A DNA stretch of 64,000 nt from Kondoa subrosea (Eukaryota), in the NCBI GenBank assembly GCA_039545335.1, contig BCIN01000001.1, positions 2,291,129-2,355,128 on the forward strand, given 5' to 3'. A model generated the notes under the pieces. It did no database searches, was not told the DNA's origin, and saw only the letters and a program-made list of their open reading frames with translations. Shown here piece after piece: positions 25,083 through 42,834 of this stretch (positions within the stretch are counted from its first letter, which is position 1; each line of letters starts with the position of its first letter). The position numbers and the translations under genes were made by a program.

Positions 25083-26005
25083 ATGGACACGCAAATTGAG
25101 ATGCTGGCTTGTCTTCTTCAGCAATTTGCTCTGCAGCATCAGGGGAAGCGGTGCATTGTTGGACTATGTGGCATCCCTGGCAGTGGAAAAACCACGCTCG
25201 CTACAAGAATTGTAGCGCTCGTCAACGGAGGAAAAGCGCCAGAGGATCATACTGCAGTGGTTTGCGGCATGGATGGTTGGCATTTGAGGTAAACGATATT
25301 CTGGTCCGCAGAGGTTGTGCTGAGACATGTCAGAGTCGACTCTCAGTCGAGCGGAGTTGGACCAACTTGCGAATCCAGAAGAAGCACACAGGTCAGCAAC
25401 TCTGTATGTTCCATGTTATCATGCTAAATTCGATGCAGACGGCGAGGAGCCCCTTTCACCTTTGATGCATTATCTTTCGTTACCTTTCTTGAACGACTAA
25501 GCAATGCTGGGCCCGAGGAACCGGTTTTTGCGCCTTCTTTCGCCCATGAACTCAAGGATCCGGTAGCTGATAGCATCTTGTTCAAGCCTCAGCATCGTAT
25601 TGTTTTGATAGAAGGAATCTATCTGTCTCTATCGGACTATCCATGGTGTCAAGGGCATCAATATTTCGATAAGATCTGGCTGCTCGAGTGTGATAGATCT
25701 AGAGCTAAGCAGAGGCTGATCAAGAGACATGTTTTGACTGGTGTGACCACGAACGAAGAGGAGGCCGTGGAGAGAGGTGCGCCTATTGAAATCTGTTTCT
25801 CTTTCGCTATGGTATTAAGACACCTCGCAGCTGAGCTCAACGATTTACCCAATGGAGAATATATGTTATCTCATGTTAGTCTATTCGTGATCAACCGATT
25901 CTCTGGCTAATGGTAAAACAGAGCATCGACTTCGATCTGCGAATACCGAGCATAGAAGATCGTGAAGTAAGGAGTCATGAAGTGCGAGAAGAAGAGCTAC
26001 AATGA
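25083..26005 (+). CDS. Yfh7-like P-loop kinase (phosphoribulokinase/uridine kinase/pantothenate kinase superfamily)
   Basis: IVGLCGIPGSGKTT Walker A; MDGWHL..R..LD; RRGAPFTFD; APSFAHELKDPV; IVLIEGIYL; RLIKRHVLTGV...AELNDLPNG. Stop TGA at 26003-26005. Confidence 0.82.
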
Positions 26006-27076: not shown

Positions 27077-30000
27077 TTAGATGCTTTCATCGTTCGCATA
27101 ACCAAGTCTGCTCGGAATGGAAGCTTAGCTAGTACGCTCAGCGAACACTGTACAACTAAACTCACCTGCGCATCTCAGCCAATTTGCGTCGAGCGTCTGT
27201 AAGTCTTCGCTCGGCACTAATGACCTCCACAGCAGCTTCCATCTCCCTAGTCTTAAACTCGTGAGCTGTTTGACAGCGTAAGCATCTCGTAACAGTATGA
27301 CCATCAACACGCACAAGCCATATTTCCGTAATCAAGCACTTCATCATCATTCTGCATCTGTTTGGCAGTAATGGCTTTGACCTGTTTGACAAGTGCTTTG
27401 CAGGCATCTGAGACGGCTTTAGCAGCTATCTCAAGCTTCTCTTGCGACTTGGACATGAAAGCCGATTTGACTCGAGAAGCTTGCACTAATTGAGCAGTTG
27501 CAGCCGCAACTTCATTGGAAGCGACAATAAGTTGATCCAGCGATCGGGTCCCCGAAACCACACCATCGGCAGTCTCAATCAAGGTTGTTGTCGCCCATGC
27601 CACGGCTCGTGCTGCACTGACCAAACCTTCTGTCCAGCGGTTGTTCTTTTTGTAAAAGGCTTGCGCAGAGCTGGAACCACGACCTTGAGCGACTATTTCT
27701 TGTTGCGAGGCAGTAGCTGCAGCGATCAATCTTCCGATTGCTCCAGTAATGGCCATTGCCGCTGATAAGATTGCATCGTGTACTTGGATGTCGATATGTG
27801 AGTGTCGAGACGAATCTTTTGGCCGGTTCATGAGATTCTGCAGCTTGTTTGTTGCATCTTCAATTGCTCTAGCAGCCGCTGACATTTCTTGCTCGACCAG
27901 ATCTCCAATATCTCCATTCGCTTTCGACAAAGAACTTTTCGGCGTCAATTGCTCGACAGCAGTAGCTAGAGTTTGCAAAGCATTTCGAGAATCCATACTG
28001 TTGCTGAGCACAACCTCTCGCTTGCTCGGCAAGGAAGAGCCTTGTAATCGGGAAGATTGCAGAGATAGGAGGAAGCGGACAATCACCTCTCCTGGTGTCT
28101 TGGCTCTTTGAACCAGCTTTTCAACCGCATCGTCATCGGAAGCAAGTCTGGTTATACCCTTGACGTTTGCAAGGACTTCTGCTATAGCCTGAGCGAGGTT
28201 GTTCGCAGTCATGATCACTTGTACATGCTCGCCGCCTTTTTCTCCGCTGAGGTAAAGACTGAAGGTCGAGGAAAATTCCATTACTGAAGCTTGGGCTTGC
28301 TCGATCGCAGACAAGGAGAGTTGAGGAGTAGCGTTTGAATTGCCGACAGACATAGCAGATTCTAAATCGTAGATGGAATCGTCAACTTTGCCGACACAAC
28401 CTTGCAAGATCGAATCGATGATTTTATTCAGCTTGTTGTGTTGATCCAAAAGAAGAGCGTCAATTTGAGCATTCACTGCCGAATCAGCTTCGCCCTTGTC
28501 AGTATGGGAATCGACCAGTCTGTTTGTGGTTTCATCGAGCGAGAATTGCATGATCTCGATTTCTTGATCTTTCTCTTGCCGCACGCGTTCGATTTCCCCA
28601 TTGCGCTCTTCGATCTTGAGTAACAGGTCGTCAATCTGCATTTGCTTAGACTACGATATAGCGGACAAGATGAATCAGATTGCGAAACAGAGACAAATCC
28701 TGAACTTACCCGCAACGATTCTTCGAGCTCTGTCAGCTGCCTGTTGTATTTCCCAAGCAGACCGGATACCTCTGAGCTTTTATTGCGTGTTGCGTCATCA
28801 GCTCGTTCTTCGGCAAAGCGAAGATCCCGCTTCAATCTTTCGACCTCATCTTTCTGGCTCTGCGTAGGCACTGGTGTCAGTCTGAACTACGTTAATAGAG
28901 ACGGACGTACGCTTTTCAACCTATCGGTCTCAAAGCGAGCTCGGTCCCTTTCTCTGATCATATCGGCTAACTCCAGATTCTTACTCTTCATGTCGCGTTC
29001 CATACGTTCCATCTTATCGATGCTTTCTTGAGCTGAATTTGCTTTAAGTGAGATCTGTTTCTGCTTAGCTAGCAGATCCAGATGTTCGGCTCGCAGTTGA
29101 GTGTAAAGTTTAGCCAATGCTTCATACTTGTTGCGCCAGAGAGTGACTTGGTCCATTAGCGATTTCTGCATTTCATCTTTTGAGTTGAGCTGGGCTTGTA
29201 TATTTGCACCAATGCCGGCCAATTCAGTCTCCAATGCTTTCACTCTCTGCAAAGTTCTCAGCTCCGAGCGTTGCAATAATCGCTCGATATAGACTTACTC
29301 GATCATATTGTTCCAACATCATCTGATCTCGCTCGTATTGCCCTCTCATGCCGAGGATCTCCCTTTCTAATTCCATCTGCCTGCTAGAGTATTGCATTTG
29401 ATGTTGCTGCTGCTGTTGTCTGAGCAATTCTTCTTGAGCCTGTCGCTCGCGCTCTTGCTGCATTCGTTGCTGTTCCTCGAATTCTCGTTGAGATCTCGCT
29501 TGCTGTTCAGCTAACCTCCTTGATTCCGCTTCTCGTTCATTCTGTAAGCGCGTTTGTTCAGCTTTCTTATCTTCAAACTCTTTGAGCATTCGAGCTTGTT
29601 CGTTGACATCTGCTGAAGGTGCCCTAGGCGGATCCTTCGGTCCTTCGGTGCGCTCCTTTTTAGGCGGAGGCATGAAATCAGGAGCTACATCTGTCAGATT
29701 TGGCGGGTCTTGAGGAAGTTTAGGGACATTGATCAAAGCAGTAAGGTATTTGAGATTCGAGCATTCGTAGTAGAAACGTCTTAGGTTGTGATGTTGCGAG
29801 TTGAAACGGCTTCTTAGAGGGTCCAGCACATCGTTAGCCTCGATTTCTGCAGGCAGGCAGTCAACGCAGTTCAATGAGTTTTGTAAATAGGCTTACGTCT
29901 GTGCATAGCTCGCAACATGCTTGTTACGAAGCGATATATACCATAGCTTTCCTTCACTTGAGGGACGAGAGCTGAAATACGACATTCGTTATTTGTACTT

Positions 30001-30792
30001 GCGCGGAAGTGTGCGAAGATCAGCTTTTGAAAAGAGTCGATTTGGTCTTGCAAGTTCATAAGATCTGTGATAGTTTCGTAGCCTTCGTTTGGGTCGTCGA
30101 TACCGCGCAAGGTAACATATTCTTCGTAATCGAAGACCCCATTGAAGTCGCGGTGATTCCGGTGAAAGCGAAGTTTGGCCAACAGAAGAGTAACATAGGC
30201 TCGGATCAATGGACCATAGCCTCTTTGACCTTCGCTTCCTACTGCCCTTGAGCAACTCTCTAGCCAATCAGCATTATCTTGAGCTTCTCGAAGACACTAT
30301 ACGATGTGCATGTCAGCACGATTTTGTCATATAAGCCTCCGTTGGTGTGGATTGACTTACAACTTTATGGCCGTCTTGTAATATCTTGTGTACGGTGACT
30401 AGAGCCTTGAAAGCGGATACTTCATCTGACAGAACTGGAAGCACTCTCAAGCCTGTCCATATTGAATGCGAAGACTTGTAGTCCCACGTGTACACGATAC
30501 ATTCTGTGCGACAAGTGATCATCAGCTACCGTATATAGCTAGTTAACAGAAACAGCGCTCACTCCGAACATGTTTGGGTTTGGGCGCTGTCTCTTCTGCT
30601 GTTGTCGCTTTCTTGATATTCAAGGCCAATTCAGCTTCTGCCTTGTCCTTATCAACCTATACACATCCTTGAGCTCGTACATATCTGTAGGCCAATGCGA
30701 GAGCTCACAGGACGAGTTGGCTTATCGAAATGACCACAATTATTAGCATTCACAGTCTTGACAGCATCTCACGCAGCTCACGTTCGACTCAT
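27077..30792 (-). CDS. SLA2: Endocytic adaptor Sla2/End4 (ANTH, coiled coil, THATCH/I-LWEQ)
   Basis: IKKATTAEETAPKPKHVR...CIVYTWDYKSS ANTH; RFYYECSNLKYLT; FYKKNNRWTEGLVSAARAVA and LIVASNEVAAATAQLVQASRVK THATCH. Stop TAA at 27077-27079. Confidence 0.95.
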
Positions 30793-30962: not shown

Positions 30963-33900
30963 TCAAATCCTAACAAAGAAGCTCTGCTCGCCTTCCTTTG
31001 GCGTGACTATGCTTCTCTGCAGCAATGGATCACCGACGCTGCATCGGACTGCGAAACATATCAGCTGGTTGAGCCAGACAGCACGGGCCGCTACGTACTC
31101 CTTTCACTCGTCAGAGGAGAGATGAATGGCATGAATTCCGTGATACCATTATCGGCGCGGGCTGATTTTAGAGCATCTCGTATTGCGAGGAAGACGGAAC
31201 AGCCTAGGAATAGAGGTGGTTCGCCTTGATACAGTGTTAGATATAATGCTGCAATAAACAATCCATGACAGAACATACCAACACCTTTGGACGTGGGAAG
31301 AGGGTTGAGTACGTTATACCTTGAAGAAAAAATAAGGCCCCACCTTTGGACGAATGCACAGTGCCGAGATCTGGCCATGAAGCATCTCTTAGTAAAGAAG
31401 TGTTAAACTTCTGCGGAATATCGGAGAAGCCAGGGATCTTGTAAGCACCAGGACCTAGAAGTAGAGACCGTTAAGGTTAGTATTGCCTAAAATGAATTAC
31501 GGATTCCCTTACCTCGTGTGAAAAGGCCGCCATTGTGTCGCAACCACAGACTCTCTTCAATTGTGAACAGTCCTTGACCTTGTACGAAGGCACCTACGAG
31601 AAAGTATCAGCACTTCCACTTCAGAAGAACAAGGGAGCTGACCCATTATCTGTCCAGCATCTATAGCAGGATTTAATGATTTCCCGATATCCCTACAATG
31701 TGAAAGGTCAGCGACAAGTTGCCGGACTACATCGGGCCACTGACATGCGAAGGTCAACTTGTAACACCGTCGAATCGCCTGTAAGCATATCGACTTCAAC
31801 CTCGGCCAATGCTATTCCGGTTGTATAGTAGTAATAGAGGTCAGCCGGCTGTCCCACTCGAGGAGGATCACCATCTGAGACACATATATCAGCGCATGAG
31901 AGCTCGCGTATCAAGTAGTTCCTTCACAATTTTGCCAAATATAGCCAATTCTGACCGCTCGTTAGAGTGTGACGTTTACAGAGATTTGACGCATGTACTG
32001 ACTTTGGGGTAGAATAATGGCCAGTCGCAGACAAATGAACCCGGTCCACTGCGTAGAAGTATCAGCTATGCAGCAATGCTCTTCGAGATCAAACTCACTC
32101 CAAGCAGCATGAGCACTGTGCAGATCGCGTAAGCCTCGGTGCTGTAAGTTCCTAGAAGTAGCCTACATGTCCTTGAGAGTGGCATCAGCCGGTAATTTCT
32201 TGCGATAGGGTTCCAATCGTTTCTGAAGTTCCGCGCACGCGACTCGAACAGCAGCTCCGTTGAGATCGCTACCGGTCGAAGCAGCTGTTGCTGATGTATT
32301 CGGTACGGTGTTGGTCGACGTTTCGCTAACAAATACAGTATCGAAAGGAATGGATAACTCTTGCGCCTGGACAACATGTCAGATGGATGGTGAGTCAAAA
32401 TTTCGACATACTGCGATCTGACACATCTTAGTGTGTAATCCTTGACCCATCTCTGTCCCTCCGTGCGAAACCAAACAGGATCTGGAACAAAATTATGAGT
32501 ACCGGCTTTTGGCAAGAGCAGAAAATGCAGCTTACCCATCTTTATAGATGTGGACAAGCGCAGAGCCCTGTAGACCTAAATTTTAGTCAAACACGGTGCT
32601 AAGCAGGCTCCACATCCCTGGTTGAACCATTTGACCCCAAAGCTCACGCCAAATGTTGTTGGCAACAGACTTAGACCGCGCTTTCTCCACTTGTGTTCTT
32701 TATTAAATGCATCGACTTCTTGACGACGATCATGGAAATTCGCATCCGCCGAAAGCTCTTCATACATGCGCGGAACATGGTAGTCGGTGATAATCTGCTC
32801 GTAAGGCATGGAATCTCCTTCCTTAAGCATATTGATCCTCCGTATCTCGTCAACGCTCTTGCCGAGTTGATGTGCGATTGATTCGATATAGCTGCAAACA
32901 GAGTCTAAATCTAACATAGACCCAGGCATCAAAAGAACTTACCTTTCTGCAATATACATCCCTTGAGGTCCTCCAAAACTGTAATACATGTTTCAGTACA
33001 GATCCAAATTGCTTCGTTGTCGACTGACCCTCTGAAAGCAGTATTCGACATCGTATTTGTTTTGCATATCTTGCCGTGCACAAATACATTTGGTATCTTG
33101 TAGCTGTTCTGTATGTGTCCCAGTGCGCGGTCGATCACACCCGCAGAGATATCAAGCTATACACCGGAGTATTTAGCACATCTCCTCTAAGCCAACAAAA
33201 CTACATACCGAGTGACCTCCATTGCAGTACACTTTGGCTTTACTACATATACAAGGTGTTTGGGGATACTTGCCAAGCTCAGAGGGAGATCGACGAACAG
33301 TGCTTGGAGCTTTCCATCTTTATCCGTACCAACCGTCCAATGGCAAAAAAATGGATGTCGCTGGCCCGTCCTGTAGTAGCTCCAACATCAGTAATGGCTC
33401 TTGATCTAGGGCCAAACTAACGAGATCATATCAGCATCCCGATCCAGCATACATCTGACAGGTCGTCGATACTTCTTCGCGCCCATTGCCAAAATACAAG
33501 CCTACACGCCTAAATCCATACAGCTCATGTATATCGGAAGTCACTTACAAGCTGAACACTCCCTTTTGACAGCGAATGAGCATTGTTTTTCACACAAAGC
33601 AACGGGCAGCTTACTCGTTTCTTTGCCGCCACTATATCATAGAAGCATAAGAAAAAATTTGTAAGTAGCAATGGATCTTACAAGCCTCCTCCAAGTCTTT
33701 TTGTCCGCGCGATCAGCTTGTTTGAATCAACTCCCTGTTGAACAACCTGAGCATAGTGCGATACGGACGCTCGTGAGCGCTTACAGTGACTTGAGCGACA
33801 TATTCCTGTACTTCCGTCGGATTCTGTGTCGATGAGAATATTTCCATTTCACCGTCTTCCAATTTCGGCAGAACGATACAGGCATTCGTTTCGAGATAGA

Positions 33901-36759
33901 AATGTTCTTTGGACATATGAGCATCTTAAAATGTGGTTATGAGAGCCTCACCTTGTCCGCCCATTCTCGCTGAGCCTTCGAAGACTTTATCGCATTTGGC
34001 CAAAGACTCGTCAATGTCTTCACCGCATCGCATGATTTTATCATACGGGTGGAAGCTCGAGGCTTCTATAGCTTCTTCCATTGTAAGTATAGGTGGAAGA
34101 ACCTCATATCTGACCACTACAGCTCTGACAGCTGCCTGAGCTTGAAACTTGGTCTCGGCTAAAATGAGTCCTATCGGTAGACCAGCAGATTGAACATCAT
34201 CAACAGCTAAGAAAGGCTCTTTGCCGCCTGTAGCAGATTTTAGTCAAGTAATGGTTTGGCTCAGACGATCGACTGACCGGGTAACCCCCAGTAATTGCTC
34301 TCCGGCGAGGGCAAGTCGTGATAGTCAATCCAACCGTGTACACCTTCCATAGCGAGCGCTTTTGTGGTATCGACTTCGAGTATTTTCGCATGCGCTCTGT
34401 CAGACAGGAGCATCCATCCATATAGCTCATTGTGAAAGCGAGGCATATCGTCAACATCTGCGTGGGCTCAGCACTCGCCTTTTGGTTTTTTGTTTGATCA
34501 AACGACTCACAAATCGCTTCACCCGTGACATGCTTGCCGCCAGAAAAATGAGGCAATTGTCGTCCAACAACCTCTTGCGCGTACGGAGCACAGTTATCAT
34601 TGACACCTGATGAAAGTTCTCGGTGAATTTGAGTGGTAATGTCCTTGACTTGAGCTGGTAATAGAGAAGGTGACAGTTCGAGTTCTTCGATAACCTCGTG
34701 CCAGAATTTGTAAAAGAAGGATAAAGTCAAAGTCTTTCGATAACTGGCCATGTCCCCTGGTACATTGAATGGTAGAGCGAATTCGGATTCGAGAGCAGCC
34801 AAAACAATTTCGAGTGTTCCCTTGTCTGCGAATGGTTCACCAATAAGGGCCTCTGATGCTTCTTTCGCTTCAACGGTAAAAGGAGCCATTCCACCATAAA
34901 CTAGGCCACAATCTTTGACCATGCCTAGGGCGTCCAAAGTGACGGAAAGACAACTTGTGACAATGCTAATGTCGTCGTCCCGACGCTTAGCTTGTTTATA
35001 AGCTTTTACCACCACCCGATCTGCGGAAGATTGATTCAGAGGGACTTTTATCTTCGTCAAGATAGCGTTTTCAGGCAAAGCGGTCTTGCGGTAACCCTGA
35101 AAGAAGTCTTTTAGGGGCAATTCGAAGACTCCTTTATCACTCGATTGTGCAACCAAAATGGCCTTCGACGCGAGCAAGACAGGATTCAGATCACTGATTG
35201 GCGAGGCTGTCGCTAGATTGCCAGAGGAACTCGCGACATTGCGCACTTGTCGACCGGCAAAATAACGCAACTGATGGTGTATTGCTGCAAGGACGCTTGC
35301 TTTTCGAGGTCCTAATTCTTTGTGGATTTCCTTGCAGAGCGTTTCCAGCTCAAACAAGGGCAAGTTTGCTCCGAATTCAAAGTATTCGGAAGTTGCGGAA
35401 GGTCGTTCATGACCGGTGAGTTCCTGGATATCCGCAACGTAAATGCAAACATTATACGGAGCAGCCTTGAACTTCATCTCAATCTGGACTTCACTACTTC
35501 CAGATACGATTTTGGCCTTGGGATAGGCATTTTTCATCTGAATCAGCTGTTCGAGCGTTACCGGCCTGAGCCAGAGTCGGAAGTCATTGCCAAAAGCTAG
35601 AGCTTTGGATTGATGAGAGCGTAGGGCAGGCGGATAAATGAGTTCAGTGCCAGGTTTGTATGGTTTGAAATCGAAGACGGGAAAGATAGGTAGAGGTTTG
35701 TCTGATTTCGATCCTCCATTCATTTTGCAGCAGTCCTTGCGTCCACAACCATTCAGTGCAGTACCAGTGTTAGTCTTGCCAATGCCTGCTTTGACACCTG
35801 TGTGATTCGTCGCGTCATGATCTACGAGACCATTAGGTGCTTTGGGCCCATCAACGTCCGCTAAAGGTGTTCCGCTGTTCACTTGCGCAGAAGCAATTCC
35901 GGAATAATCGTGACGTGGTCGAGGCACATCGATATTTGCTGCTTTCAGATTGGCTGGAATCGACAGATTATCCGTCAGTTTTCCGGCGACGTAATCCGTT
36001 ACGAAGGATTTGGCAGCGTCCAAAATGGATTTCATGCCCGTACATCGGCACAGATTACCATCCAGAACGCCTTCGAGCTCGATCTCTTCGGCACTTAAGG
36101 AGAAGCCCTTTTCATACATTGAATTCCGTAACAGAGCATAGATACTCATAACACTGTCAGGGACATGACTCAGCGTTTCTTTTTACCTGATAACGAGTGA
36201 CACCTACATTCCAGGCGTACAGAAACCACACTGAGAGCCATGAAGCGCAGCTAATCGCTGTTGAAGCGGATGCGGGTTCTCCACTGTTCCTAATGCTTCG
36301 ATGGTGATGACATGCTTGCCATCCACCATGGCCAAGGGAGCAAGACAGGCGTTCACGGCATCATGCTGTACTTTGCCAGTGCCAGGATGCCGCCGCTGTA
36401 TTACAACTGCACGATATACTTGGTAACTGTATAGTTGCAAGACTATTGAAAGCGTACCAGTGCAGGCTCCGCAACCACCTGATGCTGAATGAGTATAGTA
36501 TTGAGATAAGTCTTGACAAACAAACCTTCTCCGCCTTTGCACACAGATGAATTCAGGCAAGTGATGAGAAGAAGAGCAGAGAGGACTCACATCCCAGCTT
36601 GGTGCCAGTCAGCCCGCGTTGACTGCGAAGAAAGTCTAACAGAGTGCTTTGAGGATCCACTTGATTCGCATCCAGCTTAACAGGGCTTCCATTGATGTAA
36701 AACGATAAGTACGAAGAGTACTCTGCTAGACCATGCAGCTCTGGTGGCATATTCAGCAT
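30963..36759 (-). CDS. hxA: Xanthine dehydrogenase (2x[2Fe-2S], FAD, Moco)
   Basis: [40 protein letters not shown] domain [11 protein letters not shown] and [13 protein letters not shown]; Moco domain [49 protein letters not shown] and [12 protein letters not shown] (catalytic Glu). The gene has many introns; stop TGA at 30963-30965. Confidence 0.96.
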
Positions 36760-36920
36760 ATTGATAGTCTTGATTGGTTGAGCGGGACAAAGAGAAGATA
36801 GCCTGATTTTGAAGGTCTATCGCGGACAATCAGTGACCGATTGCGGTCTGATACTCTCTATATAGTGTCTGGATGTGTGAATGAATATCACGTAGAAGCA
36901 TCAACCTTATCGCGGCCAGA
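36760..36920. promoter_or_regulatory. Bidirectional promoter shared by XDH and Moco sulfurase
   Basis: 161 bp between divergent ATGs. It contains HGATAR sites at 36762-36767 and 36796-36801, reverse-strand GATA cores within the direct repeat TATCGCGG (36818-36825 and 36908-36915), a CGG-N11-CCG (36823-36839), a GACCG-N4-CGGTC palindrome (36835-36848) and a central TATATA-like element near 36859. Confidence 0.7.
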
Positions 36921-39542
36921 ATGAATGAACCTTATGGATTCACAGAACAAGGTTTCGAAGATGTACGCAATATCGAATGCCCTGCTCTGGCAAAGGACGG
37001 AATATACCTGGATCACGCAGCTTCTCCTCCTGCTCTTCTCTCTGCCGTCTCAAACTTTCAGCTCGATCTTGCTCAAAGCTTGTACAGTAATCCACATTCG
37101 AGATCAACAGCTGGAACAAGGACAAGCCAACGGATCGATGCAGTGAGAAATCGGGTGATGCGATCTCTGTTCGGCTTGGACATGGATCAGCAGAAGGATT
37201 TCGACCTGATCTTCACCTCTGGGGCAACAGCTGGATTCAAGCAAGTTGCAGAAGCCTTCCCTTGGTCTGAAGGCTATACCTTCCGCTACTTGAAGGAGGC
37301 ACATTCTTCTTTAGTCGGTATGCGAGGACTTGCGAACAAAGCTGGTGCGGCAATTCATCCGATGTCAATGCAAGAATTATGTAATTTGGCGAGAATGGGA
37401 ACAAAGGAAAAGACACTCTTGGCTTATCCTGCTCAATGCAACGCAACTGGTCGCAGAATCTCGCTAGACTTCTGTGCCGCAGTGAAACGCTCGTCTCTGC
37501 AAACATTGATCATCGTAGATGCCGCCGCTCATTTGTCCACTTCGTCGCTGGATCTATCTACACTACCGCTAGAAGAAGCACCTGATTACATCTCCTTCAG
37601 CTTCTACAAGATATATGGCTTTCCAACAGGATTAGGCGGACTTCTAGTAAAGCGTTCAAGCGGAAACATGTTGAAGAGAGATGGGTACTTTGGCGGTGGG
37701 ACGGTAGATGCTTTGACCGTGGATGATCCAACATGGACAGCTCCTCATGGCAGCAAACTGAAGACACCTTCTCTACACAATCGATTTGAGGATGGTACGA
37801 TCAATTTCCTAGATATCATCGCTTTGGATCATTCTATGAACACACACGACCGCATCTTTGGTAGTCTTCCTGCTGTTTCCAAATATACAACGAGTTTGAC
37901 AGCATATACCGTTCGAGAAATGCTCGCTTTACGTCATGCTTCTGGCAAACCAGTCTGCCGCGTGTATAATCGAGGACCAAGAGACGACTTTGTTGGCGAC
38001 TCAGGAGCAACGATCGGCTTCACTTTGCTCGATCAGGAAGGCGAATCACTTGGTCATGTAGAGCTCGATAAGCTTGCATCTGTGAACGGTATGTCACTAA
38101 TCTCGAATCTCCGGTAAACATCCTTATGATAGCTGCAGGGTTTCAGATTCGTACCGGAGGGCTATGTTCGACCGGTGTCATTGCTGCTTGCGTAGGATCA
38201 TCGGATGAGGATATATTAGCGAATCATGCCAAAGGTCGTGTTTGGTGCGTGCAAATCAGTTGTCTCCGGATAAGACTAAGAGCTGGGCAGTTGGGACGGC
38301 GAGGAGTTTGGTGGAATCGATGGCAAAACAGCAACGGGAATCGCAAGAATCAGTTTCGGTGCAATGTCTTCTTTGCAAGACGCAAAGGCTTGGATTGGTT
38401 TCTTGCGGAAGTTTTATGTTCTTCCAGAAACGAGGCCTTCGAGTCCACCGAGGCTGCGCAGCGGCGAGGTGTATTTGAAGACGATGTCCATCTGTAAGTA
38501 AGCGCTCGCACCGCAATACGTTTTTACAATTTGTGCTTGCCAGACCCTATCAAGTCTTGTGCTGCGCAGGATATATCTCTAGCACAGTCCTGGGAAGTCG
38601 ATTGGCAAGGTCTAAAATACGATGTAAGTTGCTCTCCGCCAAACGGTATGCGCTAAAGATGCTCTCATCTAGCGACAATGGATGCTGGTCAACAGTGCTG
38701 GTACAGCCTTGAGCCAAAAACGGTACCCCAAAATGGCTTTGATTCAGCCAAAAGTAGAAGTGGCATTAAAGCGCTTGAAGATCACGATCCCTGATTCCGT
38801 TCCTCTCTACATTTCGCTGCAACAGTCGTCTGCGCGCAAAGCTATACATGATGCAACAGTGTGCTCCTCAGCCGTCCAAGTCTCACTTATCGCCGATTGC
38901 AAAGCAGCGAACGACGCCCTATCAGCTTTTATCGGAGTCGAGTGTCAATTAGCCTGCCTATCATCTGACTCAACGAGTCGGCATGCTCATTTTGATACTC
39001 TATCGTCTCGAGTGCCTATAGCTCTATCGAACGAGAGCCCCTTCTTGCTCATTAGTCAATCAAGCGTGATGGCAGTAAATGAATGGCTCGATGAACTCGC
39101 ACCGGACAAAGCACTCCAGCCTGTGCCAGCTTCAACTTTCAGAGCAAATTTTGTGGTTGAAGGAGCTGTGCAATTCGAGGAAGATGAATGGAACCTCATT
39201 GTCAGTTCCTTCTCTTTCTCTTTGCATAGTCAACCTTTTTACCAAGCGAATCTAATGCTAGCAAATTGGTGGTCAAATCTTTCAAGTACTAGCTCCATGT
39301 CGACGTTGTCAGATGATATCCATCGATCAAGTCTCTGGCCAGAAAATAACAGAACCCTTCAACATACTCAGTAACAGAAGGCGAAACGGCAATGGAAAAA
39401 TAATATTTGGCATGCACAGTGTGTTCGGTTCTATCTTTGTATTGCCAATTATGCTGAATGATAGTCTACAGTGATACATCGACCCGAGCTGTCACAAGTT
39501 CCACACTATTTATCTGTACTTGACCCAGTGAAGATCTTCTAG
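36921..39542 (+). CDS. hxB: Molybdenum cofactor sulfurase (NifS-like PLP domain plus MOSC domain)
   Basis: IYLDHAAS, LYSNPHS, LIFTSGATAG, AYPAQCNATG, SFSFYKIYGFPTGLGGLLV (PLP Lys), YFGGGTV, RFEDGTINF, IRTGGLC (persulfide Cys), RISFGAMS. MOSC part: YPIKSCAA, YDRQWML, NESPFLLI, FRANFVV, PCRRCQMI. Stop TAG at 39540-39542. Confidence 0.94.
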
Positions 39543-41922
39543 AGCTTTGCGGCGGGAGCAGCGGCACCTTGCATCACCAATCGAAGCTCAGTAGCTGCTT
39601 CTTCAATATAGTGCGCCAATTCTTTCGCTTTGCCGGTGCGCGTGCAAATGCAGAATCTGATATCGACGTCAGCTCAATGCATCTAGAATCCAGGACATGA
39701 GCCACGTACCGTAAGGATTCGCTATTGACGGAGTAGGCCAAGCCAAAGCCATCGGGAACGACCTGACGGGTACATTTATTCCATTTGATCTACATCGGAC
39801 CACAATGACTTACCTCGCTATAACCCCAGCAGGTGAAATATTCGGACGAAAGCTGAGAAGTAGACAGAATCCAATTACACGATTCCGAGAAAGCAGGATC
39901 GTTGTAGATTGAGGGCATCTCCTCGCCCGGCTGTAGCAGCTTTTTCAGTCCTGTGCCATAATTGTCGAATAAGCCAATCATTTCAATATGAGCGCAGGCA
40001 TACCGAAGAAATGCCTGTCGACACCTTTGCCTTCTGCTGCCAGACCAGCGTACTTGATGTGCGAAGCGGCAGCTTTGCGCATAAGATCTGCCTTTTCAGA
40101 AGCCTAGGTATCTCCGGTCAGCTGTAATCTGAAACTTTGATTTGAGAGTACTGACAGGAGCATCGCTTTCCATCGCTTGGCACCATTGTAGCATTTCAGG
40201 AGTAGCACTGCGAATGACTTCAGTTCTACCAAGCTTGAATTTCCTCGTTTGAGCAGATTCGTAAGTTGGTGCTAGCTTGCCATTCATTTTATAGTAAGCC
40301 AGAGCCATGGTACATTGGGCCCAACTCTGTCGTTGTGGAAGTTAGTATGCTCATCCCGTGTGTAGAGATAGACGTACATCAGGAGAGGTTTTGAATGCCT
40401 TGATCGCGTTCTTGCCATACCCCTCGTAATTCAGTACATGCATTTCATGCTCAGACTTGAGGGTGGCCAAAGCACTCGTAGCGTCTTTAATGTGCTTCTT
40501 AATGGAGTTGTCGACCTCAAATAAAAGTTGTCGCGGTTGAGCAAGTTTTGTATTTGCTATCGGGGACCCTAGATCAATCTTCTTCGAATCGAGACTTCGC
40601 AAGATGAATTCGTTAATGCGCAGTGTAGGAGTTCCGTCTGACATGGAGTGCTCTCCACTGACGTGAACATCAGCTAGAATCTTCAAAGGCAGTATTGCAG
40701 ACTCACTTGAAACCCGACTTTCCGTTTTCGGTCACAATAACTGAGACTCCTGTAAGTTGCATGTTCTCATAGCCTAGACTGGATCACTTACCTTGATGTT
40801 TGTCCATGAACCTGTTTGGTTTGTCTCCGACCCAAAGATTCCAAGATACAGCATCCCTCGTGACCGGTTTGCTAGAATCGAGACATAGTAGAATGATAGC
40901 TGATTCGATCTTCTCTAGAGATTTGGCATTCTTGCTGGAAAGATTGATGAGATCTGTTCTTGCTGCTGCCCAAGCATCCCGATCTCCTGTTGTCAACACA
41001 CCGATTGGATTCGGGTCATCTTCTGGACCTGCTTGATCAATGATTCTCTGAAATTGTCTACACGTATCCATTAGCACAGTACCGCCATCATACAAATGAC
41101 AACCTACTGTTGCAGATCTGCTTCACTTAAGAAATCGCCATTGCTAGCTAAGATAGGCACTTCGTAGAACTTGTTTCGACGCAAGACGACAATATGGTTG
41201 TTGCTTTCTGGATCAAACTTCTTCCCGAAGTCAAGCCCTTTGTTTGGATAGCGACAGGTGTTAAAGAGGTATTTGTAGCTACTCATTGCCAGAGGAGTAG
41301 TTCTGTTGTACTATATCAGTGATTTGCTTGCTTGTGTGATGCCACAAATGCTTACTTTACCATTTCAGGCTCTAGAACACCAGATTCTAGCATTCGTCGG
41401 AAGTAAAGTACAGCCCGGATCAAGCTAGCTGCTCTTTTGGCAGGATCTTTCCGCCTGCCATTTACATCAGTAATTGTTCAGGGCCAATTTGAGTGGCACA
41501 ACATACGATAGATCATCCTTGTGAGCATAGAAGTAATTGGCGTAGAGCAATGAATCCCTCGGAGCGAAATAAGCTGCTTCATTCCACCAATCCGATAACC
41601 AACTATCCGTTTTCCCAGCTCTTTCTTGTAACCTTTGCTGCAATTTCTGTACTAGAGGGGATTCCAAGAATTCTTCGGCTACTTGTTGTGCTCTCAAATA
41701 TGCTTCGTTTGGTTTGTCTGCTGTTACCAATTGTTGACCTGGTTCTGTTATGATAGGTCGTATGGACTCCAGCCAACGTGATGTAGTGTCAACCAAAGGA
41801 TTGACTGGTAAGTTTGGAAGCTGGCTTTCGTGTTGCATCATAGTCGAGGATTGCTTGGGATTTGAAGTACTGGCAAAGGATCTAGTCATTTTGATCATTT
41901 GTCTACCAGACCTAGCTGCCAT
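39539..41922 (-). CDS. CAT2: Carnitine O-acetyltransferase with a mitochondrial presequence and a C-terminal PTS1 (AKL)
   Basis: LPNLPV, WLSDWWNEAAY, FNTCRYP, NGEHSMSDGTP (catalytic His), TYESAQTRKFKLGRTEVIRS, GVDRHFFGL and WILSTSQLS. The protein ends AAPAAKL*. Confidence 0.94.
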
Positions 41923-42834
41923 TGAAGGTTGGTAAGGTTAAAGGGAAGATTTCGCCTTCAAACAGTTGTTGTCAGGTCACCGAAATAGCCGATGTCTTTC
42001 CTTTGTCATTAAGTTTCAATTCAATGTTCACGAGTCTGTAGATTGATTACTTCAAGCCCACAATCTTGCTGCAAACCCTATGCAAGCCAGCAGATCTCTT
42101 GACACCGAAACACGAAAGACTTTTTTTACATTGACATACCAGGTAAGCAATCAGGGATTATAACTCAAGTCAATCCACAGCAGTAAGATACACAAAGCTC
42201 TTAACAGTACTATGCACGTACCTATTAATGGCCTTAGGTTTCGGGACTTTCCAAGCGAAATGATACTAATGCAAAGCCGCAGCTGCTAGCAAGACTTCAT
42301 CCTGCGTGCCACATTGCGAACTGGAGATCTGAGCTAATGTCGAGGAGACACAATATCAAGGGGATTGTATAAATTCCAAACTTCAAGCTCGAGCACCTTA
42401 TTCGAGCATAGCTTCGGCTATGCAAAGGCGTGTGGAAGGACACACCCAAGTGATAGCAATAGCTCATCATATATGCATCGTCTGCATAATCATAACATTG
42501 GGCGAAAGGAGTAGGAATACAACAGTGCTTGCAAAGACCTGGCAATATGGCCCCAAAAGCGATGGAAGAAAGCTGGGAAAGCAAGAGACCATATACAGCG
42601 GTGCCTAGTGGAGGTCAGAGAGGTCAGGATATGCCGATCTAGTTTTGCTTGAGAGGAACAGAAGCGATAGACATCAACGACAAAATCAGATACGAGGCAA
42701 AACATTGGACGCTTTCACAGCACATCGCAGAGACGAAGAAGACATGGATCATGTATTACAGCCTGTGCAGTGGCTGCGTAGACCTCGAGTGACCGTTTGA
42801 AAAAACCCTCGGAACTTGACAACGAACCAAAGTC

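Follow-up and report, generated by a model that had tools for sequence, protein, structure and literature searches.

Why should the gene of an enzyme and the gene of a protein that activates such an enzyme start from one and the same short piece of DNA? This question is raised by a stretch of 64,000 nucleotides from Kondoa subrosea (contig BCIN01000001.1; the whole 64-kb stretch is called the window here), in which a xanthine dehydrogenase (XDH) gene and a gene of the molybdenum cofactor (Moco) sulfurase type (MOCOS) lie head to head. Without a terminal Mo=S ligand XDH is inert. In the sulfurase L-cysteine is the source of sulfur, which the NifS-like domain binds as a persulfide and hands to Moco on the C-terminal MOSC-type domain; XDH obtains its Mo=S ligand from the cofactor sulfurated in this way. 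In Aspergillus, Drosophila, plants and mammals XDH and the sulfurase are treated as separate loci that are coordinated in trans. The need of xanthine oxidase (XO) family enzymes for a terminal sulfido ligand from HxB/ABA3/MOCOS is described in the accessible parts of a review (PMC13653126). We class the pair in the window with the conserved divergent pairs of functionally related genes, or minimal metabolic clusters. Our answer, to which we give a probability of about 0.7, is that Basidiomycota have conserved a divergent pair in which a canonical XDH and its activating Moco sulfurase are read in opposite directions from a short control region common to both.

Two complete genes and their common spacer

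The XDH gene (HxA-type) occupies positions 30963..36759 of the minus strand, from the ATG at 36759 to the stop codon at 30963-30965, as judged from Pfam, tblastn with fungal XDHs and spliced alignment. Its homology-guided model comprises 30 exons and 29 introns, all of them GT..AG and 38-71 nt in length (median 51), which makes it very intron-rich with 29 introns per 4.3 kb of coding sequence. The latter has 4299 nt (1432 aa) and a single stop at its end; a second in-frame ATG is found at 36750 (minus strand). Both gene models of the pair were obtained with a protein-to-genome aligner that was written for this analysis, allows GT/GC..AG introns and uses three homologues per gene as guides (P0001, P0002 and P0014 for XDH; P0121, P0122 and P0140 for MOCOS). 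They are homology-based throughout and a few junctions are model-dependent: two modelled XDH micro-exons, one with 6 nt (31279-31284) and one with 9 nt (36526-36534), are uncertain, as is the 38-nt intron, and the XDH junction around 33549-33631 varied with the guide protein.

Of the nine stop-to-stop open reading frame (ORF) fragments on the minus strand from 31 to 39.5 kb, five carry XDH-family Pfam domains (Fer2_2, FAD_binding_5, CO_deh_flav_C, Ald_Xan_dh_C and MoCoBD_2). Along the minus strand the domains follow the order expected for the XO family, i.e. Fer2/Fer2_2, FAD_binding_5, CO_deh_flav_C, the Ald_Xan_dh_C hammerhead and the Moco-binding part, and the spliced alignment of the window XDH runs over the full length of XDHs that bear all seven Pfam domains. 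When compared with solved structures, the FAD-domain exon matches rat, human and bovine XDH with E values of 1e-62 to 1e-65 and aldehyde oxidases with 1e-51 to 1e-53, and a Moco-domain exon matches XDH with 1e-19 to 1e-21 and aldehyde oxidase with 1e-11; judged from these comparisons the window enzyme resembles XDH more than aldehyde oxidase. Its translation contains GGGFGGKETR, FRGFGGPQG and GVGEPPLF, which may be the Glu/Arg/Glu active-site motifs of XDH (presumably bovine Glu802, Arg880 and Glu1261). A hypoxanthine/xanthine hydroxylase activity is predicted for this protein.

The MOCOS gene (HxB/ABA3/MOCOS type, NifS-like plus MOSC) lies on the plus strand at 36921..39542, according to Pfam, spliced alignment and the intron table. 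Seven exons and six canonical introns of 46-61 nt give a coding sequence of 2313 nt (770 aa), in which the only stop is the terminal one with its end at 39542. Two of the three plus-strand fragments have Pfam matches, to Aminotran_5 (E 1.2e-20) and to MOSC_N (7.8e-10) with MOSC (3.4e-7), and one 770-aa frame joins the N-terminal NifS-like pyridoxal phosphate (PLP; class-V aminotransferase) domain with the C-terminal MOSC_N and MOSC domains. Solved cysteine desulfurases are the structure matches of the N-terminal exon. In this protein family a PLP-binding lysine and a persulfide-forming cysteine belong to the NifS-like domain, and a conserved cysteine to the MOSC domain. The S-x-Y-K lysine column (S227, Y229, K230), which is invariant in a 20-sequence MOCOS alignment, is present in the window, and the segments RTGGLCSTG and CRRC of the window protein represent the near-invariant alignment columns R-x-G-x-x-C-N-x-G and C-R-R-C. 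Moco sulfuration and activation of XDH by this protein are predicted. Among the matches listed the best database homologues carry the names xanthine dehydrogenase for the XDH query and molybdenum cofactor sulfurase for the MOCOS query; the best identities are about 47-54% on the large exons and, over the full length, 60% for XDH and 47% for MOCOS.

The sequence-only reading, which had described a complete XDH gene on the minus strand and a complete NifS/MOSC sulfurase gene on the plus strand with starts only 161 bp apart, proves to be exact, and its outer ends at 30963 and 39542 agree with our models. It is most improbable that this layout is an artefact of assembly or annotation in which the genes are no real neighbours or include a pseudogene. 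The gene models are guided by homology and contain the few uncertain micro-exons mentioned above, but both frames, with 29 and 6 canonical introns, respectively, are free of stops other than the terminal one, and the catalytic motifs (presumed ones in the case of XDH) are present. Furthermore, all sampled words of the stretch occur in two DNA sequencing runs of one sample (possibly the source), a metagenome contig of independent origin repeats the layout, and 14 other annotations have the two genes side by side (see below).

With the ATGs at 36759 (minus strand) and 36921 (plus strand) the two genes stand head to head, and the intergenic region between the start codons, read directly from the DNA, covers 161 bp (36760..36920). 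This region is presumed to hold a bidirectional promoter together with both 5' leaders. Because only 161 bp separate the start codons, both promoters would overlap. In the mechanism that we infer, with shared promoter function and co-expression and with selection as the cause of the linkage, expression of the enzyme would set in together with that of its activator; a GATA factor that responds to nitrogen status would be the most likely regulator, and a second factor would perhaps bind an 11-nt repeat. Coordination would thus be hard-wired in cis by the shared bidirectional control region, and owing to the physical link XDH and MOCOS would be passed on, lost or transferred jointly.

The motif HGATAR is given as the consensus of sites of the nitrogen regulator AreA in the accessible part of PMC8478523. 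A motif scan finds it four times in the spacer, on the plus strand at 36762..36767 and 36796..36801 and on the minus strand at 36817..36822 and 36907..36912, compared with about 0.5 expected (200 sites per 64 kb); at least four sites are present in only 0.5% of equal-sized windows across the 64 kb. The third and the fourth site overlap, respectively, the first and the second copy of an 11-nt direct repeat (repeat family D1, plus strand) that is located at 36818..36828, with the core TATCGCGG, and at 36908..36918. These copies are 90 bp apart and identical in 10 of 11 positions, and the second one ends 3 bp before the MOCOS ATG. The 8-nt repeat core occurs twice in the 64-kb window, with both copies inside the spacer. 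GATA sites and repeat can be considered as leads, not as proof. No inverted repeats were found in the spacer, and a scan for bacterial sigma-70 promoters and terminators, a type of scan inapplicable to a eukaryote, returned 0 sites in 36500-37200.

The MOCOS side of the spacer also contains an upstream ATG frame of four codons and a stop (36882-36896), about 40 bp ahead of the MOCOS ATG. An 8-nt word across this upstream ATG recurs at the true MOCOS start (36878-36929; repeat family D4). If transcription begins upstream of the frame, it may represent an upstream ORF.

Recurrence of the pair in other fungi

Adjacency of related genes was evaluated in the best 120 of 1697 XDH matches and the best 120 of 258 MOCOS matches, plus two cluster look-ups, and two genes were regarded as neighbours if they have consecutive locus tags or accessions on contigs of identical size. 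Among these matches XDH and MOCOS are neighbours in 14 named records from Russulales, Lyophyllaceae/Tricholoma, Sporidiobolales and Microbotryales, with one record labelled 'Hyaloraphidium' included in this number. Consecutive tags are found in Bondarzewia mesenterica (g7346/g7345), Termitomyces Mn162 (006229/006228), Termitomyces Mi166 (009317/009316), Termitomyces 'cryptogamus' (H2248_002571-72/002570), Tricholoma furcatifolium (009962/009963), Tricholomella constricta (007759/007758), Rhodosporidiobolus poonsookiae (000545/000546), Rhodosporidiobolus nylandii (009285/009284), Microbotryum saponariae (2g08024/25), Microbotryum silenes-dioicae (C004g02802/01) and Microbotryum lychnidis-dioicae (MVLG_06038/37). 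Consecutive accessions are found in Termitomyces T112 (KAG5728218/19) and in the 'Hyaloraphidium curvatum' record (KAI9024730/29), and Rhodotorula toruloides has consecutive identifiers in two annotations (GEM09251/52; NBRC10512_005708/07). In Termitomyces J132 both genes are on a same-sized contig, which is co-location only and was not counted as adjacency.

Errors are frequent in the public gene models around the pair. The MOCOS model is fused to a helicase in Tricholomella, to a kinase in Mycena venus and to WD40 repeats in Rhodosporidiobolus ruineniae; Termitomyces Mi166 has an over-long model of 1575 aa, and in Termitomyces 'cryptogamus' XDH is split in two.

A metagenome scan with the 20-sequence MOCOS alignment gave 598 pattern matches, 563 of them relatives, and 80 loci were kept, and tblastn with XDH proteins matched one of these 80 loci (L001). 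Among the loci with upstream DNA, L001 has the MOCOS that is most similar to the window protein (47% identity). On its contig the XDH N-terminus lies at 3-1382 on the minus strand and MOCOS begins at about 1805 on the plus strand, i.e. the genes are again head to head. By reading, their start codons are about 389 bp apart, and the spacer contains 4 of the contig's 11 HGATAR sites, including tandem copies. A Mycena-like MOCOS locus (L020) has about 1.2 kb of upstream DNA, in which no XDH is detected even at E values below 1, and another locus (L022) has just about 240 bp upstream of MOCOS, too short to judge. Confinement of the adjacency to a single assembly, which had been named beforehand as the finding that would speak against such a unit, is contradicted by the 14 named records and by the head-to-head arrangement in L001.

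The gene downstream of XDH in the window, which encodes a Sla2/Hip1-type endocytic adaptor with ANTH and I/LWEQ domains (about 27165-30720, minus strand, 9 modelled exons), served as control for synteny. Among the Sla2 matches listed, this gene has a place on another contig, and tags far from those of the pair, in six of six pair-bearing species (R. poonsookiae, R. nylandii, Bondarzewia, Tricholoma furcatifolium, Tricholomella and M. lychnidis-dioicae). Since Sla2 is not syntenic in any of these six while the pair is kept, the pair outlasts background synteny. An extended syntenic block of the pair with Sla2 was considered too and had to be rejected, as Sla2 is found elsewhere in all six species. 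A divergent pair is thus observed in the form of a head-to-head arrangement with a short spacer (161 bp, against about 389 bp for L001) and of an adjacency that goes beyond the background.

Several observations weigh against a pair that is both conserved and co-regulated. Orientation and spacing were read at two loci, the window and L001, and adjacency in the 14 named records comes from numbering only. In all 12 Mycena species with both genes listed the pair is split, with contigs of differing size; in Meredithblackwellia eburnea the genes share a 3.96-Mb contig but their accessions are about 1054 apart; and in Phenoliferia sp. Uapishka_3 they are on different contigs with distant accessions. 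The linkage is therefore dispensable, and the earlier description of a fungal unit has to be narrowed: the pair does recur in distant basidiomycetes, but it is not universal. XDH is found near MOCOS in none of the 17 ascomycete-like metagenome loci with at least 1.5 kb of upstream DNA, and Ustilaginomycotina and Tremellomycetes have MOCOS with no XDH partner among the best 120 of 1697 XDH matches. As far as the spacer is concerned, clusters of GATA sites that are about as dense as this one, or denser, are present in other parts of the window, with 7 sites in 25568-25696 and 6 sites in 38887-39029 within the MOCOS coding region. The repeat core was picked by eye post hoc, and 31 of 100 window shuffles yield at least two copies somewhere. 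Finally, co-regulation through the 161-bp region is itself putative, being something that we infer.

The separations in Mycena, Meredithblackwellia and Phenoliferia happened without gene loss and, together with the unlinked state in the ascomycete-like loci (0/17), they would suit a neutral history in which neighbours in an early basidiomycete have just not yet been separated and the spacer has no special regulatory meaning. Such residual synteny appears unlikely to us, because the flanking Sla2 gene is not syntenic in six of six species, i.e. background gene order decayed while the pair survived across two subphyla, because the partners are a known enzyme-activator couple and because both readable loci are head to head with short spacers. 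A conserved divergent pair with a shared control region is preferred.

Early-diverging fungi also have no XDH partner among the best 120 of 1697 XDH matches. MOCOS is present in Mortierellomycotina, Glomeromycotina, Basidiobolus and Coemansia, and in the accessible part of Amon et al. (PMC5746545) Mucoromycotina are reported to be without XDH; therefore, the sulfurase of early-diverging fungi may serve another client.

Shared history of the two genes

Trees of XDH and MOCOS were reconstructed under LG+G4 (44 rows) and under LG+C20 (23 and 26 rows, with most ascomycete and metagenome rows dropped). They are quick searches with support from the Shimodaira-Hasegawa-like approximate likelihood ratio test (SH-aLRT) only, and the tested groups were named after the trees had been seen. 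Under both models the two proteins have a common backbone, in which the window sequence is basal and is followed by Russulales (Bondarzewia, plus Heterobasidion in the case of MOCOS) and then by a clade of Agaricales and Microbotryomycetes, the latter with LG+C20 support of 100 for XDH and 99 for MOCOS. Mycena is sister to Phenoliferia plus Meredithblackwellia (SH-aLRT of 97 under LG+G4 and 89 under LG+C20 for MOCOS, and 84 under LG+C20 for XDH). Agaricomycetes as one clade are rejected for XDH, with a log-likelihood difference (delta lnL) of 182 and p 2.5e-76 in the approximately unbiased (AU) test, and likewise for MOCOS (delta lnL 85, p 2e-4); Microbotryomycetes as one clade are not rejected for XDH (p 0.26). 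The branches of the window and of Bondarzewia are long (0.43-0.93).

The Sla2 control tree (45 rows, same build) reproduces the expected species tree, with Agaricomycotina at a support of 100, Mycena beside Lyophyllaceae and Bondarzewia in Russulales. The window is placed on the Pucciniomycotina side of this fully supported split, on a deep branch of its own outside the sampled Microbotryomycetes, Pucciniales and Atractiella; the DNA would accordingly come from a basidiomycete of a lineage with little sampling, probably one of Pucciniomycotina. The tree spans two subphyla only, and placement of the window in a third lineage is compatible with it. As the trees of XDH and MOCOS agree with one another and conflict with that of Sla2, the two genes apparently have a shared history that departs from the species tree. 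As judged from these sequences the congruence fits joint inheritance and possibly joint transfer, and the former proposal of a unit that could be kept, lost or transferred as one piece is in line with it. Three causes are possible: the genes may have been transferred horizontally and together between Pucciniomycotina and Agaricomycetes, an old duplication may have been followed by differential loss, or the trees may be affected by long-branch attraction.

According to the first of these causes, the pair would have been kept mainly as a moving unit. The Agaricomycete copies would descend from Pucciniomycotina yeasts, with at least one passage from Microbotryomycetes to Agaricales, and only both genes together would give a working enzyme to a recipient that makes Moco. 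The rejected monophyly of Agaricomycetes for both proteins, the well supported union of Agaricales with Microbotryomycetes and the position of Mycena in both trees would agree with this, as would the Sla2 control, which recovers Agaricomycotina. Moreover, among the matches listed, the Agaricomycete XDH and MOCOS sequences stem from the same few lineages, and the 'Hyaloraphidium' record falls inside Microbotryomycetes for both genes. The trees speak less clearly if it is considered that they are quick searches evaluated by SH-aLRT only with groups named afterwards, that the long branches of the window and Bondarzewia may be attracted toward the root, and that the retained monophyly of Microbotryomycetes for XDH leaves nesting within this class unproven. 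Mycena and its nearest neighbours in the gene trees have unlinked genes, which does not suit the transfer of a single two-gene fragment. In the accessible part of section 2.3 of Amon et al. (PMC5746545) the two basidiomycete XDH clades are explained by an old duplication and differential loss. We therefore hold the moving unit to be possible but doubtful.

The broader version of this explanation is equally tentative. It would see a mobile, self-sufficient two-gene module, with the patchy purine-hydroxylase capacity of mushrooms (Agaricales, possibly Russulales) derived from at least one acquisition of the linked pair from Pucciniomycotina yeasts and with linkage persisting as only joint transfer yields an active enzyme. 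The finding of a conserved divergent pair would become more interesting if joint horizontal transfer were confirmed.

The 'Hyaloraphidium curvatum' record deserves separate consideration. Its XDH (P0043) and MOCOS (P0127) are neighbours on a 786-kb contig under a Monoblepharidomycete label, and in all four trees both genes are placed inside Microbotryomycetes beside Leucosporidium or the isolate JL201, with support of 97-100. This suggests that a public assembly with a chytrid label contains either a contaminant contig from a basidiomycete yeast or the product of a horizontal transfer. An origin of the pair of chytrid age, prior to Dikarya, was derived from this record as a candidate and is rejected, since both genes nest within Microbotryomycetes. 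In the MOCOS tree Tremellomycetes (Naganishia) group with Ustilaginomycotina, apart from Agaricomycetes and Pucciniomycotina, which is a further conflict with the species tree.

Relation to known arrangements and neighbouring genes

In Aspergillus nidulans hxA, encoding XDH (purine hydroxylase I), and hxB, encoding the Moco sulfurase, belong to the same two families and stand in the same enzyme-activator relation as the pair in the window. These two genes are presumably located on different chromosomes. In A. nidulans they lie apart and their co-regulation acts in trans, whereas in the window they have a shared 161-bp spacer. Accessible parts of the literature place hxB under induction by the purine regulator UaY and by HxnR and mention HGATAR-type AreA sites on its promoter (PMC8478523), and they describe hxA as co-regulated with purine genes and hxB as 'an unlinked gene' with regard to the hxn cluster (PMC5746545). 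It follows from this regulation of hxB and hxA that co-expression is already the rule where both functions are unlinked.

The bacterial xdhAB(C) genes resemble the window in that XDH genes lie beside a factor for the delivery of sulfurated Moco. The bacterial arrangement is a co-directional polycistronic operon, and its chaperone XdhC belongs to a different protein family. The window pair, in contrast, is found on opposite strands, has introns, is monocistronic and includes a NifS-like/MOSC partner, and no XdhC-type domain is seen among the Pfam matches of the ORF fragments in 31-39.5 kb. From the term 'operon-like module' in the sequence-only reading the pairing of an enzyme with its maturase can be retained, but the term is loose for two divergent monocistronic eukaryotic genes.

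A likeness in layout exists to the divergent fungal nitrate-assimilation genes niiA-niaD, which also consist of head-to-head, functionally dependent nitrogen genes with a short GATA-rich control region, one of them encoding a molybdoenzyme. niiA and niaD encode two consecutive enzymes of one pathway. Clustering of nitrate-assimilation genes is mentioned in the accessible part of PMC5611559. While niiA-niaD thus combine consecutive pathway enzymes, the pair described here combines an enzyme with its post-translational activator. To our knowledge plant ABA3 and animal MOCOS genes are not reported to be linked to their XDH or aldehyde oxidase clients. The plant ABA3 and animal MOCOS (ma-l) proteins show the same two-domain sulfurase architecture and the same role for the XO family, as far as described in the accessible parts of PMC13653126. 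In the full-text literature that was searched, with most subscription journals outside its scope, no description of XDH-MOCOS linkage in any eukaryote was found.

If the reading as a conserved divergent pair is true, the spacer would be a small bidirectional promoter of natural origin, suited to work on nitrogen and purine regulation in genetically tractable yeasts such as Rhodotorula. The pair would also be a simple genomic marker for the presence, loss and transfer of purine hydroxylase in a phylum with patchy XDH, and a clean test case for the clustering of dependent genes in eukaryotes, where co-regulation competes with co-inheritance or co-transfer as explanation.

The DNA of the window is intron-rich and fungal, with a GC content of about 0.44-0.50. 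Pfam searches of 87 further ORF fragments revealed ordinary housekeeping genes, and no other purine-catabolic or Moco-biosynthetic genes were seen in the 64 kb. Downstream of MOCOS a carnitine O-acyltransferase gene is located at 40354-41937 on the minus strand (Pfam); neither this gene nor Sla2 has an obvious tie to purine or molybdenum metabolism. The best matches of the Sla2 protein among those listed are from Pucciniomycotina with 61-66% identity (Pseudohyphozyma 66%), followed by Agaricomycetes with 58-63%. The cluster of GATA sites at 25568-25696, about 130 bp in length, is the densest of the 64-kb window, and the ORF fragments there are without Pfam match; it may be another nitrogen-regulated promoter or the result of chance.

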